Position numbers and translations under genes: made by a program
Assembly (NCBI GenBank): GCA_019058315.1
Contig: JAHPZH010000003.1
Location: 492,451 to 556,450 of the forward strand
Direction of reading: 5' to 3'
Length of the DNA: 64,000 bases
From: Candidatus Helarchaeota archaeon
Lineage (GTDB): Archaea > Asgardarchaeota > Lokiarchaeia > Helarchaeales > RDOG01
In this document: positions 32,016 to 39,782 of the stretch, piece after piece
Position numbering within the stretch: position 1 is the first letter of the stretch
How the letters are laid out: every line of letters starts with the position of its first letter
Notes under the pieces: generated by a model
What the model saw: the letters and a program-made list of their open reading frames with translations, nothing else
What the model was told of the DNA's origin: nothing
Database searches by the model: none

Positions 32016-32951
32016 TTGACTATTGATAGTAATTCTGTACTTTCAAAGATAGCATGCCCAGAGTGTGGAAATGATTCTAATATAGTTAATGACGATACTC
32101 GTGGCGAAGTTATTTGTGGAAACTGTGGGATTGTAATAAGTGAAAAAATTATTGATCAAGGTCCTGAATGGAGAGCTTTTAATACATTAGAACGCGATAA
32201 ACGTTCAAGAGTAGGATCTCCAATTTCTTATACTATACATGATAAAGGTCTTTCAACTATGATTGACTGGCATGATAAGGATATTTACGGTAAAAAACTG
32301 CCTCCTAAAACCCGAGCACAAGTGTATCGGATGAGGAAGTGGCAAATTCGGACTCGAGTGCATAGCTCTATAGCTAGAAACTTAGCACAAGCTATGACAG
32401 AATTAGATCGTTTATCATCACAATTAGACATTCCAAAAGGAGTTAAAGAGACATCAGCTGTTATGTATCGTAGAGCAATTGAAAGAAGACTTATTAGAGG
32501 ACGTTCTATCGAAGCTATGATTGCAGCCGCAGTATATGCAGCATGTAGACTTAGAAAAGTTCCGAGAACCTTAGATGAACTTGTTAAATATACCCGAGTT
32601 AATAAAAAAGATCTTGGACGTGCTTACCGATTAATGATTCAAAGATTGGGAGTTCAAATTCCTACCTCGAATGCGAAAGATTTCATATCTCGTTTTTGTG
32701 CAGACCTTGAATTATCAGGACGTGTTCAAAAGAAAGCATGTGAGCTTATTGATCAAGCAAGTGCAAAGGCAATAACCGCAGGAAAAGACCCCACAGGGCT
32801 TGCAGCCGCAGCAATTTATATAACAGGAATTCTTGAAGGTGAACGAAGAACCCAAAGACGCATAGCAGAAGTAGCCCATGTTACGGAAGTAACAATAAGA
32901 AACCGATACAAAGAGTTAATCAAAAAATTAAGAATTTTTGTTGAAGTTTAA
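32016..32951 (+). CDS. tfb: Archaeal transcription initiation factor IIB
   Basis: Zn ribbon CPECG..CGNCG, IDQGPEWRAF, HDKGLST, RGRSIEA, GKDPTGLAAAAIY, VTEVTIRNRYKEL. Confidence 0.98.
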   Translation: MTIDSNSVLSKIACPECGNDSNIVNDDTRGEVICGNCGIVISEKIIDQGPEWRAFNTLERDKRSRVGSPISYTIHDKGLSTMIDWHDKDIYGKKLPPKTRAQVYRMRKWQIRTRVHSSIARNLAQAMTELDRLSSQLDIPKGVKETSAVMYRRAIERRLIRGRSIEAMIAAAVYAACRLRKVPRTLDELVKYTRVNKKDLGRAYRLMIQRLGVQIPTSNAKDFISRFCADLELSGRVQKKACELIDQASAKAITAGKDPTGLAAAAIYITGILEGERRTQRRIAEVAHVTEVTIRNRYKELIKKLRIFVEV

Positions 32952-33000: not shown

Positions 33001-33627
33001 CTAGTCAACACTATTTCTAATAGCTAATTTCCAATAGATGTAAAATATCGAACAGAACATCTCTTCCCACCTTGTTGTAGAAAACTCATCAAGAATATAA
33101 TTCTTAGGTTTGAAATGAATTGTTTTTCCATTAGTATATTGAAAATGAACTTCCTTCCATTCATGCTTAATACCTCTATAAAATTCAGTGACTTGGATAA
33201 ATGGCATATCCTCAATATAATCCCATGTGAAACCTTGAACTCCTCCAGTCCATAATTTGTAAACAACTCCGGATGGACCTACTGCAATAAACAGATTTTT
33301 CCTTAAATGTCTGTCAAGACTACCCAATATTAAAACAAATACGGCTAGTCCTAGAGGAATAAATGGAATCCATGTGGGCAGATAACTATTTGTGTTTGAG
33401 TTAATATTAATTATGGAGAACAGGCTTATTAGCCCTATTATAACTAAAAATACACCAAAAATTAGGAGCACATATCCACCAGTACCGACTTTGCCTGGAA
33501 AAACAAAAATTTGTTTTCTCTGAATGGCACCCTTTAAATCTTCTGGAGAATATAATTCTTTAGATTCATAATATCCCGATTTATAATCTTCGTAAGCTTT
33601 AAGAAGTATATTTAATTCCTCACTCAT
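33001..33627 (-). CDS. Hypothetical protein, two TM helices plus soluble beta-rich (PH-like) tail
   Basis: GGAGG upstream of ATG; 2 TM followed by IAVGPSGVVY..FTWDYIE. Confidence 0.7.
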   Translation of the reverse strand: MSEELNILLKAYEDYKSGYYESKELYSPEDLKGAIQRKQIFVFPGKVGTGGYVLLIFGVFLVIIGLISLFSIININSNTNSYLPTWIPFIPLGLAVFVLILGSLDRHLRKNLFIAVGPSGVVYKLWTGGVQGFTWDYIEDMPFIQVTEFYRGIKHEWKEVHFQYTNGKTIHFKPKNYILDEFSTTRWEEMFCSIFYIYWKLAIRNSVD

Positions 33628-34188: not shown

Positions 34189-35142
34189 TTATTTAATACT
34201 ATCTTTAATAAGATAATAGCAAAGCGCCCCAAATGCTTTATCCACATTATCCCCCGTTTTTGCAGATGTTTCAAGATACGGCAAATTTAATTTTTTAGCT
34301 AACTTAGCTGCTTTTTCAAAACTTACTTTTCTTTCTAAATCGATCTTATTACCGATAAGCATAATTAGGAATTTATGTTGTAGAGGCGCAGATTCCTTTA
34401 ATTCTTCAAGCCAATTTGAAATATTTTCGAAAGTTTGCGGTCGACTGACATCATAAACTATGACTGCAGAATCTGCACCTTCTAAATAAGTTTTGCGTAT
34501 ATTTTTAAACATTGTCTGACCTGATAAGTCCCAAATATTCAGAATCACAGAGATATTTTCTGAAAGTGTATATGTCTTTTTTTGAATCCCCACACCAATA
34601 GTAGATTTATAATCCTCATCAAATTTTTTCTCTATAAAACGTCTTAATATGCTAGTTTTTCCTACACTTTCAGTACCAAGAATTACTAGTTTAAAGAAAA
34701 AATCAGTTTTTTCCTTCATTTGAGGAAGTTGGAGATCAAGTGAAATATTTGGAACTTCATAATCGATTAATTGTTGGATTTTTTCAGCAACAATATAGGT
34801 CCAAGGGAGGATTTTGTCCGTATCCGAGCCAGGTCTAACTAATGTTATGAGAAAAGCTTTTTTTCCAGCTTGTGTAAAAATTAATTGTCCTTGTTCTGTG
34901 GTGACTATAGCTCCTAAATGACCACCTTCACCTGATAATTCTCTTTTAATCCGATTAGCAGCATTACTTAAAGCACCACTACAAGCAGCAATTGTGAGTT
35001 CTTCCTCCTCTTGAGTAATTGATGAAGCAATAATAAGCCCACTTTTATCCATAATAGCAGCTACTAAAATACTATGAATATTTAAATAATTATCTAAAAG
35101 AATGTTAAGCTTATTACCAAGTGTTTGTTGCACAAAATCCAC
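34189..35142 (-). CDS. Roadblock/LC7 domain fused to a Rab-like small GTPase (copy A)
   Basis: Roadblock AAIMDKSGLIIAS..IAACSGAL; G1 GTESVGKT, G2 YKSTIGV, G3 WDLSGQ, G4 GNKID, G5 ETSAK. Confidence 0.93.
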   Translation of the reverse strand: MDFVQQTLGNKLNILLDNYLNIHSILVAAIMDKSGLIIASSITQEEEELTIAACSGALSNAANRIKRELSGEGGHLGAIVTTEQGQLIFTQAGKKAFLITLVRPGSDTDKILPWTYIVAEKIQQLIDYEVPNISLDLQLPQMKEKTDFFFKLVILGTESVGKTSILRRFIEKKFDEDYKSTIGVGIQKKTYTLSENISVILNIWDLSGQTMFKNIRKTYLEGADSAVIVYDVSRPQTFENISNWLEELKESAPLQHKFLIMLIGNKIDLERKVSFEKAAKLAKKLNLPYLETSAKTGDNVDKAFGALCYYLIKDSIK

Positions 35143-35356: not shown

Positions 35357-36289
35357 TTATCTAACACTATCTTTAATCAGGTGATAACAGAGTGCCCCAA
35401 ATGCTTTGTCAACATTATCTCCAGTTTTAGCCGATGTTTCAAGATATGGAATTTTTAGAGCTTTGGAAAAGTTTTTAGCCTCATCGAAACTCACCATTCT
35501 ATCCAAATCGATTTTGTTACCTATTAACATTACGATAAATCTACTTTGTGCTCTCATAGGTTCTTGAAGCTCATCAAGCCAGTGATTAATGTTTTCAAAC
35601 GATGCCGGTCTTGTTACATCATAAACAAGGACTGCAGATTGTGTTCCTTCTAGGTAGGTTTTCCGTATATTTCTGAACATTGCTTGACCCGCTAAATCCC
35701 AGATATTCAAAGTTACTGATACACTATCAGAAAGATCATAAGTTTTATTAAGTATCGAAACCCCAATAGTCGATTTATAATCTTGTTTAAACGATTTTTC
35801 AATAAATCTTCTTATTAAACTGGTCTTACCAACTGCTTCATCCCCGAGAACTACAAGTTTAAAGTTAAATTTTTGTGGATCCGTCATTTTTGGAAGTTCA
35901 AGGGACAGATCTAAATTCTCAAGGTCAATTAATTGTTGAATTTTTTCTGCAACAATATAGGTCCAAGGAAGGATTTTGTCCGTATCAGAGCCAGGTTTTG
36001 CCAAAGTAATGAGTACAGCTTGGTCTCCAGCACGAGTAAAAATAAATTCTCCTTGTTCTGAGGATACTATTGCACCTAAATGGTATCCTCCCGATAATTC
36101 ATCTTTAATTCTTTCTGCTGCTGTAGCTAATGCACCACCACAAGCAGCAATCGTCAGTTCCTCCTCCTCTTTAGTAATAGAAGAAGCCATCATTAACCCA
36201 TCATTGTCAACTATAGCTCCAGCTCTAATATTGGGTATTTTTAGGTAATTTTCTAATAACGTATTTAGTTTATCTCCGAGGGTTGTCAT
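35357..36289 (-). CDS. Roadblock/LC7 domain fused to a Rab-like small GTPase (copy B)
   Basis: Roadblock GAIVDNDGLMMAS; G1 GDEAVGKT, YKSTIGV, WDLAGQ, GNKID, ETSAK; start ATG 36289 behind GGAGG (ORF track 36337). Confidence 0.93.
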   Translation of the reverse strand: MTTLGDKLNTLLENYLKIPNIRAGAIVDNDGLMMASSITKEEEELTIAACGGALATAAERIKDELSGGYHLGAIVSSEQGEFIFTRAGDQAVLITLAKPGSDTDKILPWTYIVAEKIQQLIDLENLDLSLELPKMTDPQKFNFKLVVLGDEAVGKTSLIRRFIEKSFKQDYKSTIGVSILNKTYDLSDSVSVTLNIWDLAGQAMFRNIRKTYLEGTQSAVLVYDVTRPASFENINHWLDELQEPMRAQSRFIVMLIGNKIDLDRMVSFDEAKNFSKALKIPYLETSAKTGDNVDKAFGALCYHLIKDSVR

Positions 36290-36407: not shown

Positions 36408-37472
36408 CTAAATTACTCTCTTAATTCTTAGCAATTTTTTTTTCTGATATTTTTTAAGAATTTCATTTACTTTTATCAAAGGCAAATCAGATTTTTTACA
36501 AATATTTTCGATATTATTTGTTCCATCACATAAACGCAATACTTTTAAATCCAAAAAAGGTAATTTCTGCTTCCCAAGTTTTTTTACTAAGAAAGGTCTC
36601 CTTTGAGCATACTTTTTAGGTTTAGGTTTAATCTCTTTTTTAGTAATATCTTTTGGTGCTGTTTTTTTAGTAGACTTTTCAATCATTTTAAGTAATTCGG
36701 CTTTTTTAGTCGTAACGGAACTTGCTTCACCAGTATCAGGAATATCAACATGATTTATTTGGGTTGCCTCTTCTTCTGATTGAGAATATGCTTCAACCTC
36801 TGTTTGAAGCTCCATCATTTTTGTTAACTCTATCATTTCTTCGCACCATTTTGCCATATCGAATTCCTCTATAGCTTTGAATAAATTTATTGCTTCATTA
36901 AAATGACTTATTGCTTCTTTGTAATACCCTATAGAAAGTGCCCATTCAGCGTTTTCGATAGATTCTTCAATTTTAGCTTTTTTTAACTTTACTTCTGGAG
37001 AGTCAATCTCTTGAATTGCCTGATATTGTTCAGAAGCAAATGTAGCGTCAGAAGTTATAGACAAACCTTTTGCGGTATCTTGAACAATATTATCAATTGC
37101 TAATTCAAATGGTTTCAGTATTAAAACATCTTGGTTACTAAGAGCCTTATCGGCAAAACCTAATTTCACAAAGGAAGTTAAAATATTTCCAAGAAAAATT
37201 TTTGCATCTACCTCATTAAAACCCAAGTCCATTGAAACTGCAATTATAAAGTAATCTGAAATGCTGTAGAAAAATTTTTTGGAGCCCATGGTCACCGCTT
37301 TTACGTAATCCCCACCAGTCACTTCTGCAGAAAAATTAATTATTGCAGTAAGCAGACCACTGAATAAATTAGAGTCTATTTTTTGTGTTTTATCATAATT
37401 TTTATGAATTAAACAGACTCCACTATTCTTATCTATTATCCAAACGTCACCAATCAAAGAGAATAATTCCAT
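36408..37472 (-). CDS. Longin domain + helical hairpin + C-terminal winged helix protein (paralog 1)
   Basis: VWIIDKNSGVCLIHKNY..DSNLFSGLLTAIINFS; KIEESIENAEWAL..AISHF; RPFL..LRLCDGTNNIENICKK..KVNEILKKY. Confidence 0.8.
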   Translation of the reverse strand: MELFSLIGDVWIIDKNSGVCLIHKNYDKTQKIDSNLFSGLLTAIINFSAEVTGGDYVKAVTMGSKKFFYSISDYFIIAVSMDLGFNEVDAKIFLGNILTSFVKLGFADKALSNQDVLILKPFELAIDNIVQDTAKGLSITSDATFASEQYQAIQEIDSPEVKLKKAKIEESIENAEWALSIGYYKEAISHFNEAINLFKAIEEFDMAKWCEEMIELTKMMELQTEVEAYSQSEEEATQINHVDIPDTGEASSVTTKKAELLKMIEKSTKKTAPKDITKKEIKPKPKKYAQRRPFLVKKLGKQKLPFLDLKVLRLCDGTNNIENICKKSDLPLIKVNEILKKYQKKKLLRIKRVI

Positions 37473-37583
37473 TTATTTAGTTATTATAAATTTATTTTAT
37501 TACTGGAATTAATTCTTTTTGGTTTATTATCAAATTAATATTGTAATTCAGATAGGTTATTAACAATATTTTTTGTTAATATG

Positions 37584-38537
37584 CTAAATAGAAGTCTTTT
37601 TATATTCAATGAATTTATTTTTTTGGTACTTTTGCAGTATTTCTTTTACTTTTGTTAAAGATTTATTTGTCAGTTTACAAATTTGTTCAACAGTGCGAGT
37701 TCCATTACATAAACTAAGAATTTCATTATCAATAAAAGGCATTTTCTTTTTACCAAGTTTTTTAATTAATATTGGGGTTTTTTTTGTAATCTCATGTTTT
37801 TCATCAGGAATTGATTGCATTTCTTTTTTTTCTATTTTTGAAAAAGCTTCGATTTCTTCTTCCAACTCCACCATCTTGATTTGCTCAATCATTTCATTAC
37901 ACCAGTTTGCCATATCGAATTCCTCTAGCTCATTAAATAGAGTTATTGCAGTTTTAAAATGGGCAAGTGCATCTTTATAAAAACCTTTACTTAGTGAATG
38001 CTCTGCTTTTTCTATAACCTCTTCAATTTTTGTTTTCTTTAATTTTACATCTTGAGAGTCAATTTCTTGTGCTGCAGGATATTGATCAGACAGATTTTCT
38101 GCAACATTAGGAATTACAGCTAGACTTCTTTTAGTATTTTTAACGATTTTATTAATTGTTATTTCGAAGGGTTTCAATTGTTTAAGATCTTTTTCGGCGT
38201 CTTTAAGAGCTTTATCGGCATAACCTAACTTTATAAATGCGGTTAAAATATTTCCGAGGAAAATTTTTGCATCCACTTCATCATAGCTCGGATCCATTGA
38301 TACTGCAATTATAAAATGATCGGAAATGCTGTAAAAAAATTTTTTGGAGCCCATAGCTACCGCTTTTACATAATCACCCCCAGTAACTTCAGCAGAAAAA
38401 TTTATGATCGCAGTTAGTAGACCACTAAATAAATTAGAATCAATTCTTTGTAATTTATCATAATTCTTATGAATTAAGCAAAGTCCGCTACGTTTATCAA
38501 TAATCCAAACGTCACCAATCAAGAACAATAATCCCAT
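37584..38537 (-). CDS. Longin domain + helical hairpin + C-terminal winged helix protein (paralog 2)
   Basis: Same three-part architecture; TPIL..ILSLCNGTRTVEQICK..KVKEILQKY. Confidence 0.8.
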   Translation of the reverse strand: MGLLFLIGDVWIIDKRSGLCLIHKNYDKLQRIDSNLFSGLLTAIINFSAEVTGGDYVKAVAMGSKKFFYSISDHFIIAVSMDPSYDEVDAKIFLGNILTAFIKLGYADKALKDAEKDLKQLKPFEITINKIVKNTKRSLAVIPNVAENLSDQYPAAQEIDSQDVKLKKTKIEEVIEKAEHSLSKGFYKDALAHFKTAITLFNELEEFDMANWCNEMIEQIKMVELEEEIEAFSKIEKKEMQSIPDEKHEITKKTPILIKKLGKKKMPFIDNEILSLCNGTRTVEQICKLTNKSLTKVKEILQKYQKNKFIEYKKTSI

Positions 38538-38678
38538 TTAATATTTTTAATTAATCTATTTTATTATAAGAATAAAATTCTGATAAATATTTTATGATTA
38601 ATTGAAATTTGAATATAAAAAAGCGAAAATAGAAAATATTAATTTGTATAAATTTTAAATTTAGAAATTCGAATTTTT

Positions 38679-39782
38679 TTATTGAAAAGCTCGTTTCATT
38701 CCAATTAATTTCTTTTTATGATATTTTCGGAGAATTTCACTTACTTTTAATCTGTTTAGTTTAGTTTTTTTACAGATATCATCGACAGTGTGGTTGCCAT
38801 CACATAAAGGGATTACTTTTGAATCTAATAAAGGAAATTTCTTAGCTCCAGTTAGAGGTCTTAATAAATACGGAATCCTTCGAAATTGAACTGAAACATC
38901 TTTCTTTTTTTCTTGTTTAATAGGTTCTACGGGTTTAATTGGTTCTTCAGTTTTAATCGGTTCTTGATAATTAGTGGCTTCTTTAGTTTGAGTAGATTCA
39001 ATAGGTACTGGAGGTGCTTGAAATGGAACGGTAATTTCTTCTATTTTTTCGGGGCTTTTTTTCGTATCAAGTAAGACCGTTTCTCTTACTGGAAAAGGAG
39101 GTAATTTTGCAATGATTTGAGTTTCTTGAGTTTCAAATTGCTTAGCTTTTTCTATCATCTCCGTACACCATTCAGCCATATCATTCTCTCCAAGTTCTCT
39201 GAATAACTCTTCTGCAACGTGAAAGTATATTATAGCGTCCTTATATAGACTGTTTGCTAATGCCCACTCTGCATTCTCAATGGCTTCTTCAATTTTTTGT
39301 TTTTTCATACGAACTTCTGGTGTGTCTGTTTTTTCGGCAAGTTGATATTGTTCATTCAAGAGATCTCCGTAATCTTGCCTGATTGTTAAGATGTTGATTG
39401 CATCTTGAACAATTATATCAATTTGTTGTTCAAATGGTTGAAGTGCTAAGGTATCTTGAGTAGTAAGTGCAATTTCAGAATAACCCATTGTAATAAAAGA
39501 ATTTAAAATATGATCAAGGACTGGTTTTGCGTCAAGCTCATTGAATCGTTCTTCCATAGAAATAGCAATGATGAAATTAGTAGAAACTCTATAGAAAAAT
39601 TTGTTAGACCCCATAGCAACTGATTTTATGAAATCTCCACCTGTTATCTCTTCGGAGAAGTTGATTATGGCCGATAATAAGCCACTGAAGAGGTTGGCAT
39701 CCACCTTCTTCAATCTCCCATAGTTTCTATGTATTAGACACAAGCCTGTCTTTCTTCCTATTACCCAGATGTTTGAAATCAA
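38679..39782 (-). CDS. Longin domain + helical hairpin + C-terminal winged helix protein (paralog 3)
   Basis: IWVIGRKTGLCLIHRNY..DANLFSGLLSAI; Pro/Glu/Lys linker with EPIK x3; IPYL..VIPLCDGNHTVDDICKK. Confidence 0.8.
   Translation of the reverse strand: MISNIWVIGRKTGLCLIHRNYGRLKKVDANLFSGLLSAIINFSEEITGGDFIKSVAMGSNKFFYRVSTNFIIAISMEERFNELDAKPVLDHILNSFITMGYSEIALTTQDTLALQPFEQQIDIIVQDAINILTIRQDYGDLLNEQYQLAEKTDTPEVRMKKQKIEEAIENAEWALANSLYKDAIIYFHVAEELFRELGENDMAEWCTEMIEKAKQFETQETQIIAKLPPFPVRETVLLDTKKSPEKIEEITVPFQAPPVPIESTQTKEATNYQEPIKTEEPIKPVEPIKQEKKKDVSVQFRRIPYLLRPLTGAKKFPLLDSKVIPLCDGNHTVDDICKKTKLNRLKVSEILRKYHKKKLIGMKRAFQ

Follow-up and report, generated by a model that had tools for sequence, protein, structure and literature searches.

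Three tandem genes on the minus strand of a Candidatus Helarchaeota genome encode proteins that share four parts: an N-terminal longin domain, an acidic three-helix bundle of an MIT/TPR-like type, a variable disordered linker and, at the C terminus, a basic winged helix (wH) of 68 residues. The genes, here called W1, W2 and W3, lie between positions 36408 and 39782 of the stretch of DNA that was analysed (64,000 nucleotides; GenBank assembly GCA_019058315.1, contig JAHPZH010000003.1, positions 492,451 to 556,450), which is referred to below as the window and is AT-rich, with a G+C content of about 30%. In alignment, W1 is 65% identical to W2 and 47% identical to W3. The wH of these proteins is the archaeal counterpart of the first wH that follows the longin domain in the GATOR1 subunits NPRL2 and NPRL3, and it occupies the same relative position. 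On the same strand lie two genes for fusions of a Roadblock/LC7 domain to a Ras/Rab-like GTPase, named A and B here (Table 1).

An AlphaFold2 model of W2, built on an alignment of 34 sequences, reached a mean predicted local distance difference test score (pLDDT) of 89.8, with all three folded modules confident; the predicted template modelling score was 0.50, so the placement of the domains relative to one another is loose. In this model the longin domain spans residues 7-140 and is followed by a low-confidence linker (146-157), the three helices of the bundle (162-183, 187-203 and 207-241), a short linker, and a wH made of a strand (251-257), three helices (268-274, 283-290 and 294-306) and a closing strand (310-316). 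When the wH was modelled alone on 45 family members, its pLDDT was 87.4. The charge of the proteins is unevenly divided: the longin and helical modules are acidic, the bundle carrying a net charge of -7 to -8, and the wH has a net charge of +12 to +15 over its 68 residues and an isoelectric point of 10-10.4, with an exposed and conserved K-Y-Q-K-K-K motif on helix 3 and the wing.

The initial annotation, made from the DNA letters and their translations, had described these proteins largely as they appear here. The C-terminal motif that it gave, P-h-L...D..hh.LC(D/N)G...h..IC...V.EIL.KY, is present in all three proteins in our alignment, with the correction that the spacer from IC to V has 9 residues and not 8. 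The pattern AEWAL..Y..AI.HF..A..LF..MA.WC.EMIE was likewise found in all three, but the "hairpin" to which it had been assigned is really the three helices listed above for W2. The variable linker reported as an insertion is indeed one, with about 10, 48 and 65 residues across the three proteins. W3 starts with the TTG at 39782, and the resulting N-terminus agrees with those of all homologues in the alignment. The public call of this gene (P0001, 341 aa) begins at an internal methionine and is without the first 26 residues, which form strands b1-b2 of the longin domain.

Table 1. Genes of the cluster, their encoded domains and the adjoining genes (positions in the window)
Feature	Positions	Strand	Remarks
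W1	36408-37472	minus	354 aa; longin, MIT-like bundle, linker, wH
W1 longin domain	37038-37472	minus	
W1 MIT/TPR-like bundle	36759-37004	minus	
W1 NPRL2-type wH	36411-36614	minus	
W2	37584-38537	minus	317 aa; shortest linker of the three; protein used for the AlphaFold2 model
W2 longin domain	38097-38537	minus	residues 1-147
W2 MIT/TPR-like bundle	37815-38060	minus	residues 160-241
W2 NPRL2-type wH	37587-37790	minus	residues 250-317
W3	38679-39782	minus	367 aa; TTG start; longin, MIT-like bundle, long linker, wH
W3 longin domain	39357-39782	minus	
W3 MIT/TPR-like bundle	39081-39326	minus	
W3 NPRL2-type wH	38682-38885	minus	
Roadblock/LC7 + Ras/Rab-like GTPase fusion A	35357-36289	minus	310 aa from ATG; open reading frame extends to 36337; immediately follows W1
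Roadblock/LC7 + Ras/Rab-like GTPase fusion B	34189-35142	minus	317 aa; 69% identical to A
208-aa open reading frame	33001-33627		between GTPase B and TFIIB; hydrophobic segments
TFIIB	32016-32951	plus	convergent with the cluster

The winged helix and its relation to NPRL2 and NPRL3

Relatives of the window proteins were collected by an exhaustive phmmer search of 1.84 billion representative sequences, which yielded 127 proteins in two sets, one sharing the N-terminal domain and the other the C-terminal domain only. A profile of the wH, built from 45 domains over 67 positions (profile A2), was then compared with all PDB sequences (177,635). Its best natural match was human NPRL2 (6ces_N), aligned at residues 174-239 with profile positions 4-66 of 67 (E 4.8e-5), followed by yeast Npr2 (E 4.9e-4), and a weak second match to NPRL2 fell at residues 346-369; two artefacts inflated by repeats, a designed "CAP repeat" protein and a repetitive adhesin, outscored NPRL2. 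The HMMER alignment at 6ces_N 174-239 reproduces the NPRL2 sequence (VPVF...) that the initial annotation had given, which was therefore correct. Both domains have the layout strand-helix-(D/N)G-helix-helix-strand, including the N-terminal strand marked by P-h-L in the archaeal proteins and by VPVF in NPRL2. Generic winged helix-turn-helix (wHTH) proteins and PqqD align with the helix-turn-helix (HTH) core of profile A2 only; for the PqqD chain 5sxy this means positions 17-41, or 25 residues (E 6.3e-4).

The strength of this link depends on the breadth of the family. A profile made from W1-W3 alone did not retrieve NPRL2 from the PDB and gave only a marginal and irrelevant match (3n0u, E 0.23), so the link is significant only with the wider family profile. 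When the full W1-W3 sequences were compared with Pfam, no family exceeded its cut-off, and the weak matches were HTH_47 (E 0.0024), HTH_NPRL3 (0.029) and TPR_2 (0.14). Among the 45 wH family members, HTH_47 matched 36 (best E 1.2e-5), TrmB 21 (1.8e-5), wHTH-PRTase_assc 18 (3.2e-6) and HTH_NPRL3 14 (8.4e-7); MarR_2 and HTH_24 also matched the HTH core of family members. PqqD matched a single relative, the 370-aa protein P0042 (E 7.9e-4), and DUF742 matched two, weakly (best E 5.8e-5; P0042 at 9.7e-5). Judged by these Pfam matches, the domain is a wH with several weak affinities, NPRL3 being among the best.

Structural comparison led to the same GATOR1 subunits. With Foldseek, the top match of the wH was yeast Npr2 of the SEA complex, and NPRL2 chains had the highest TM scores (0.82-0.83, with a root-mean-square deviation (rmsd) of 1.8-2.0); the E-values were weak, as is expected at 67 residues. 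VIA-align, run over 48,161 representative chains without the Foldseek pre-filter, ranked NPRL2 first (8fw5_B, residues 172-240) and Npr2 second (8adl_S, residues 242-310), both at Z 9.5 and rmsd 1.9-2.0 with 66 of the 67 wH residues aligned. A second look over the whole PDB added residues 258-330 of NPRL3 (Z 8.9-9.6), and eight of the ten best entries were NPRL2, Npr2 or NPRL3; overall, superpositions on these three proteins gave Z 8.9-9.8. Typical DNA-binding wHTH factors reached at most Z 7.4, and RRE/PqqD folds, at Z 6.3-7.4, also fell below NPRL2. The proposal that the C-terminal domain is an NPRL2-like wH is thus borne out, since the same region of NPRL2/Npr2 comes first by both profile and fold; nor do its matches reduce to generic HTH or PqqD-like domains, the GATOR1 wH being the best of them and PqqD covering 25 residues only.

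The same domain recurs in other settings. About 25 matches to the wH were found in the genome of the window itself, with E-values down to 6e-26, and in the family it occurs after a longin domain, after a different alpha/beta domain (that of P0005), in tandem arrays of two or three, and with zinc ribbons. Relatives of about 200 aa (P0009, P0021, P0048 and P0087) carry the wH directly after the longin domain and are collinear with NPRL2 residues 1-240, and P0042 consists of a longin domain and three wH domains. The layout and length of P0042 are the same as those of NPRL2 overall; in its locus (L010:6001-7631) a gap of 3 nucleotides separates it from a gene for a 171-aa TRAPP protein (Bet3-like, PF04051).

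A basic wH could also mean that W1-W3 are nucleic-acid-binding regulators, in which the wH would bind DNA or RNA, the longin domain and the bundle would act as sensor or partner modules, and the neighbouring GTPase genes would reflect co-regulation. The isoelectric point and charge of the domain and its exposed K-Y-Q-K-K-K motif are what such a regulator would show, as are the core matches to TrmB (21/45), MarR_2 and HTH_24, to which can be added that some relatives with tandem wH domains exceed the TrmB cut-off. DNA binding has been considered for the wH repeats of NPRL2/3 too (Levine 2013, PMC3747258), and a TFIIB gene adjoins the cluster in the window and in three other genomes; this gene is, however, convergent and on the opposite strand. 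Over its full length the domain is best matched by the protein-binding wH domains of GATOR1 and not by DNA-binding factors; generic wHTH factors align only from about residue 12 and miss the N-terminal strand. The wH is, moreover, repeatedly fused to longin domains or to P0005-type domains, themselves a weak Roadblock lead, and adjoins GTPase and TRAPP genes. We therefore regard a nucleic-acid-binding role as improbable.

The longin domain, the inserted bundle and the catalytic signatures

The N-terminal domain had been predicted to adopt a longin fold, and it does so in the model: its topology is b1 b2 a1 b3 b4 b5 a2 a3, with pLDDT above 90, and it superimposes on solved longins at Z 12-14. 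The best of these folds include VAMP7/SYBL1, Fuzzy, TRAPP, Sec22, Mon1-Ccz1, BLOC-3 and the small and medium subunits of the AP complexes, with individual VIA-align scores of 14.3 for SYBL1/VAMP7 (2dmw), 13.7 for TRAPP (3cue_A) and 13.3 for Mon1-Ccz1; a solved Lokiarchaeota longin scored 11.2. Profile comparison with the PDB gave a similar picture, with MON1 (E 1.7e-4), Bet5 (3.3e-4) and also VAMP7 among the closest. When 48 members of the longin family were compared with Pfam, the families matched were Longin, Fuz_longin_1, Intu_longin_1 and Clat_adaptor_s; the best E-value, 4.2e-7, was that of Fuz_longin_1, which matched 7 of the 48 members, the window proteins themselves not being among them. 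When the full-length model was compared by fold, its top 50 matches did not include the longin domain of NPRL2, although similarity is still possible; Npr2 stood at rank 49 of that list through a whole-chain alignment only (Z 9.1, rmsd 19.1).

Between the longin domain and the wH lies the helical unit that had been likened to TPR and MIT domains, a likeness upheld by its fold and by profile matches at the level of the family. Like the MIT domains of Vps4/CdvC, calpain-7 and spastin, it is a three-helix bundle of about 70-80 residues, and the calpain-7 MIT domain superimposes on the W2 model with 66 residues aligned at rmsd 1.9 and Z 9.2, a score that is possibly unspecific for helical bundles. 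A profile of 23 such units matched MIT domains over nearly the full length of the profile, namely a Sulfolobus Vps4-like protein (2v6y, E 0.0099), that of a chitin synthase (0.022) and that of calpain-7 (0.08); it also matched consensus TPR designs, with scores inflated by repeats, and the first two helices fit TPR equally well. Pfam MIT (PF04212) was the family most often matched, by 11 of the 23 units (best E 1e-6), and none of the three window units matched it at E below 0.1. The label MIT/TPR-like is therefore a fair one at the level of the family. In the paralogs P0010-P0014 the longin domain is followed by three to five copies of the unit. One of them, a 614-aa protein encoded in the same genome (G000:C2:166946-168772, L008), whose longin domain is 36% identical to W3 over residues 1-224, has five MIT-like units after the longin domain and no wH; one of these units exceeds the Pfam MIT cut-off.

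Taken at face value, such a combination would suit adaptors in trafficking or at membranes that work independently of GTPases, the longin domain serving as it does in SNAREs and AP sigma, the wH binding acidic membranes and the bundle binding helices of the ESCRT-III type. The top longin folds (VAMP7, Sec22, AP sigma/mu) are those of trafficking proteins of this kind, a basic wH joined to acidic modules by a flexible linker would make a suitable membrane tether, and the helical unit matches MIT domains as a family. Yet W1-W3 have neither a SNARE motif nor a transmembrane anchor, their own bundles gave no Pfam MIT match within the limit stated above, and a purely adaptor role leaves their conserved pairing with Roadblock-GTPase genes, described below, unexplained; this alternative appears very unlikely to us.

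Longin GTPase-activating proteins (GAPs) carry catalytic signatures. In NPRL2, Arg78 in the longin b4-b5 loop is the catalytic arginine finger (PMC8534245), and the loop before b2 holds both the arginine of FLCN/SMCR8 and a GP motif that is specific to the GAP longins NPRL2, FLCN, SMCR8 and C9orf72 (PMC12290439). The register of these residues in W1-W3 was taken from sequence and from the secondary structure of the model and not from superposition of coordinates. On this register there is no equivalent of Arg78 in W1-W3, whose b4-b5 loop (residues 72-74) reads SDH, SDY or STN and is only 3 residues long, compared with 8. The b1-b2 loop, DK[R/N/K]SG followed by L or V, contains no conserved arginine and no arginine of the FLCN type in the alignment, and the GP motif is absent, glycine 18 being at least 90% conserved and followed by L, V, S or I but never by P in the subfamily. 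A lysine or arginine at position 15 of the b1-b2 loop is conserved within the subfamily only. The earlier remark that the longin loop has no conserved arginine consequently holds for both known finger positions. It had been added that a role as guanine nucleotide exchange factor (GEF) or adaptor was as plausible as a GAP role; since the Arg78 equivalent, the FLCN-type arginine and the GP motif are all absent, we judge a platform or GEF-like role to be likelier than that of an arginine-finger GAP.

W1-W3 might nonetheless be GAPs of a GATOR1-like kind, in which a longin dimer of paralogs would stimulate GTP hydrolysis through a non-canonical residue or through the GTPase's own glutamine, as MglB does. 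The wH is of the NPRL2/NPRL3 type, and three paralogs might form heterodimers resembling NPRL2/NPRL3, but the loci with a single copy carry one paralog only. The adjacent GTPases retain the DxxGQ glutamine, the subfamily conserves a basic residue, K/R15, within its b1-b2 loop, and the Roadblock protein MglB is itself a GAP without an arginine finger (Tran et al. 2024, PMC10933270). Against this stand the loop equivalent to that of Arg78, which is short and has no arginine, the lack of a conserved arginine after the b1-b2 glycine, the missing GP motif, and the nearest longins, which are of GEF or adaptor types. A GAP activity of this sort seems to us unlikely.

Gene pairs with Roadblock-GTPase fusions

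The two GTPase genes downstream of W1 were assigned with high scores in Pfam: fusion A matched Ras at 3.2e-49 and Robl_LC7 at 3.7e-8, and fusion B matched them at 3e-48 and 5.5e-9. For both, the top Pfam score is that of Ras/Rab, with Gtr1_RagA weak, and the catalytic DxxGQ glutamine is kept in the alignment. Fusions of Roadblock domains to GTPases are common, being found in 81 of 151 genomes of the class. A search of these 151 genomes with W3 recovered the full architecture of W1-W3 in the genome of the window only; the known relatives are on contigs from metagenomes or metagenome-assembled genomes (MAGs) outside that sample.

Among those relatives the pairing of genes recurs. In two of them (L001 and L003) a single longin-MIT-wH gene lies directly upstream of, and in the same direction as, a single Roadblock-Ras GTPase gene, and a convergent TFIIB gene comes next; what lies upstream is not the same, L001 having Peptidase_M24 there and L003 a DHH protein. 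A third (L002) has the same arrangement of three plus two genes as the window. In the tree each window paralog pairs with one L002 gene, which places the triplication before the split of the two genomes. The pairing is thereby seen in four genomes of two lineages (L001, L002, L003 and the window). Read from gene order and domain matches, this context connects the longin domain and the wH with the machinery of small GTPases. Related Asgard longins are also fused directly to Arf/Ras GTPases in the atlas.

Several further observations were made at these loci. The GTPases are 85-95% identical across L001, L002, L003 and the window, and the adjoining longin-MIT-wH proteins only about 45%. The W3 orthologue in L002 (L002:1038-2486) has been called as two genes, of 302 and 146 aa, split within a long TTYEQP tandem repeat of the linker; low-complexity expansion appears to be concentrated in this part of the protein, unless a frameshift or assembly error lies here in L002. 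In the window, the TFIIB gene is convergent with the cluster as in L001 and L003, and the small open reading frame that precedes it was not seen in either of these.

A sister family was found in three genomes (L013:1495-3918, L014:3-2421 and L015:3-2436), where the nearest GTPase homologue is 47-49% identical. This GTPase is divergent from an adjoining protein of about 400 aa that combines a P0005-type N-terminal domain (E ~1e-40 to 1e-44) with the same wH as in the window proteins (~1e-7). The P0005-type domain gave no sequence match in the PDB, and its Roadblock leads in the Atlas are weak (score 0.83). Near more distant Roadblock-GTPase homologues are genes for FAD-dependent oxidoreductases (L016:2-1177 and L017:3-1211) whose first 47 residues or so match Pfam GDI weakly (E 1.5e-4 in L016 and 0.018 in L017); these matches probably reflect just the common dinucleotide-binding motif.

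Relation to known systems and proposed function

Like NPRL2 and NPRL3, the subunits of GATOR1/SEACIT, which is the GAP for RagA/Gtr1, W1-W3 begin with a longin domain that is followed by a wH. Unlike them, they carry a bundle of about 80 residues and a disordered linker between the two, and they have one wH each, not the two or more wHTH repeats of NPRL2/3 (PMC3747258). They also differ from NPRL2 in having neither an equivalent of Arg78 nor the GP motif, in a longin domain that is nearer to those of SNARE, TRAPP and Mon1 proteins, and in a strongly basic wH; the neighbouring GTPases, in contrast to the clients of GATOR1, have the Roadblock domain first and are Rab-like, not Rag. A Pfam search for IML1 (DEPDC5/Iml1) found no match in the genome of the window, and the control genomes were equally silent, so the search is uninformative. 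As the arginine finger, the GP motif and multiple wH repeats are all missing, W1-W3 are a variant of the Asgard longin-wH proteins of the NPRL2-like kind and not orthologues of NPRL2.

That kind has been described before. Asgard proteins with an NPRL2-like longin and a C-terminal domain were reported from the majority of Thor MAGs and from a few of Loki (Liu et al., bioRxiv 10.1101/2020.10.19.343400), and the asCOG label "NPRL2-like longin domain" has also been used for Lokiarchaeum ossiferum (PMC9834061). W1-W3 resemble the family of Liu et al. in combining an Asgard longin with a small NPRL2-type C-terminal domain, and the relatives of about 200 aa (the Thorarchaeota and Promethearchaeota rows of the atlas) fit it as well. 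The NPRL2-like resemblance in Asgard archaea is hence already published, and the idea put forward by the initial annotation, while correct, is not new in general. New with respect to the literature searched are the MIT-like insertion, the tandem triplication and the conserved operon-like pairing with a Roadblock-Rab-like GTPase, none of which is mentioned in the description by Liu et al.

By profile, the longin domain is closest to those of Mon1-Ccz1, Fuzzy-Inturned and BLOC-3 and of TRAPP (Bet5/TRAPPC1 and Trs23/TRAPPC4), which are Rab-GEF platforms. W1-W3 differ from the tri-longin GEFs in having one longin domain and not three, and from all of these proteins in their MIT-like and wH modules, which the latter do not have; the cluster contains no TRAPP (Bet3) partner. 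A further possible parallel is the actinobacterial conservon, in which CvnB (Roadblock/LC7), CvnC (a DUF742 wH) and CvnD (a Ras-like GTPase) are separate proteins encoded together with a sensor kinase. Like the conservon, the cluster described here brings together a protein of the roadblock/longin superfamily, a small wH and a small GTPase.

Dimers of longins and of roadblocks are conserved small-GTPase platforms that mostly serve as GEFs (Levine 2013, PMC3747258; PMC10933270). Because the longin domain is of a GEF/adaptor type, the arginine finger and the GP motif are missing, and the pairing with GTPase genes is conserved, we favour, with a probability of roughly 55%, the reading that W1-W3, as tandem paralogs, belong to a variant of the Asgard NPRL2-like longin-wH family that is restricted to one lineage (Helarchaeota-type), and that they act as non-catalytic platforms, GEF-like or scaffolding, for the adjacent Roadblock-Rab-like GTPases. 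In such a mechanism the longin domains of W1-W3 would dimerise, and a longin surface would engage the Roadblock-Rab-like GTPase encoded downstream; the proteins would serve as a GEF-like factor or a scaffold rather than as a GAP with an arginine finger. Further partners would dock on the MIT-like bundle and on the wH, and the candidates for these are helical peptides, acidic surfaces of proteins, membranes and nucleic acids. Physical binding of the GTPase, the direction of regulation and the ligands of the wH and of the MIT-like bundle are all what we infer from architecture and context.

Several results weigh against the platform reading or the comparison with NPRL2 on which it builds. Two unrelated wH domains, Rv2067c (8hkr, Z 8.9) and a clostridial peptidase (3k9t, Z 8.7), lie less than one Z unit below NPRL2 in the fold comparison, which amounts to a tie, so that NPRL2 is not set apart by structure alone. 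Nor is the longin domain NPRL2-like in any specific way, the SNARE, TRAPP and Mon1-type longins being the closest. The conserved Lys/Arg15 could be an unconventional catalytic residue, and the very basic wH (+12 to +15), with its core matches to TrmB, MarR and HTH_47, may bind nucleic acid. Finally, the adjacency to GTPase genes was found in only four genomes from two related lineages, which are close kin, and the cases are not independent.

A bolder version of the platform reading can be imagined, in which the cluster would represent an archaeal precursor, in minimal form, of the Rag-Ragulator-GATOR1 logic wired to ESCRT: an NPRL2-type dimer would read or set the nucleotide state of a pair of Roadblock-Rab-like GTPases, its MIT-like bundle would recruit ESCRT-III proteins bearing MIT-interacting motifs, and its basic wH would attach it to the membrane. 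We consider this a long shot. If true, it would represent a direct coupling of small GTPases to ESCRT, which is not known in eukaryotes in such a form. The MIT-like insertion by itself hints at a connection to ESCRT-III, a speculative one that is predicted from likeness of fold and profile.

Asgard genomes encode dozens of small GTPases, longins and roadblocks, and cognate pairs among them are hard to predict because the genes of regulators and GTPases generally lie outside operons, as is the case for the longin, roadblock and GTPase genes of MK-D1 (Tran et al., PMC10933270). A longin-wH gene conserved directly upstream of a gene for a Roadblock-Rab-like GTPase is a concrete candidate for such a regulator-GTPase pair. 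The absence of both the arginine finger and the GP motif bears on the evolution of GAP activity among longins, and our results suggest that the combination of a longin domain with an NPRL2-type wH predates eukaryotes, separately from the catalytic features.

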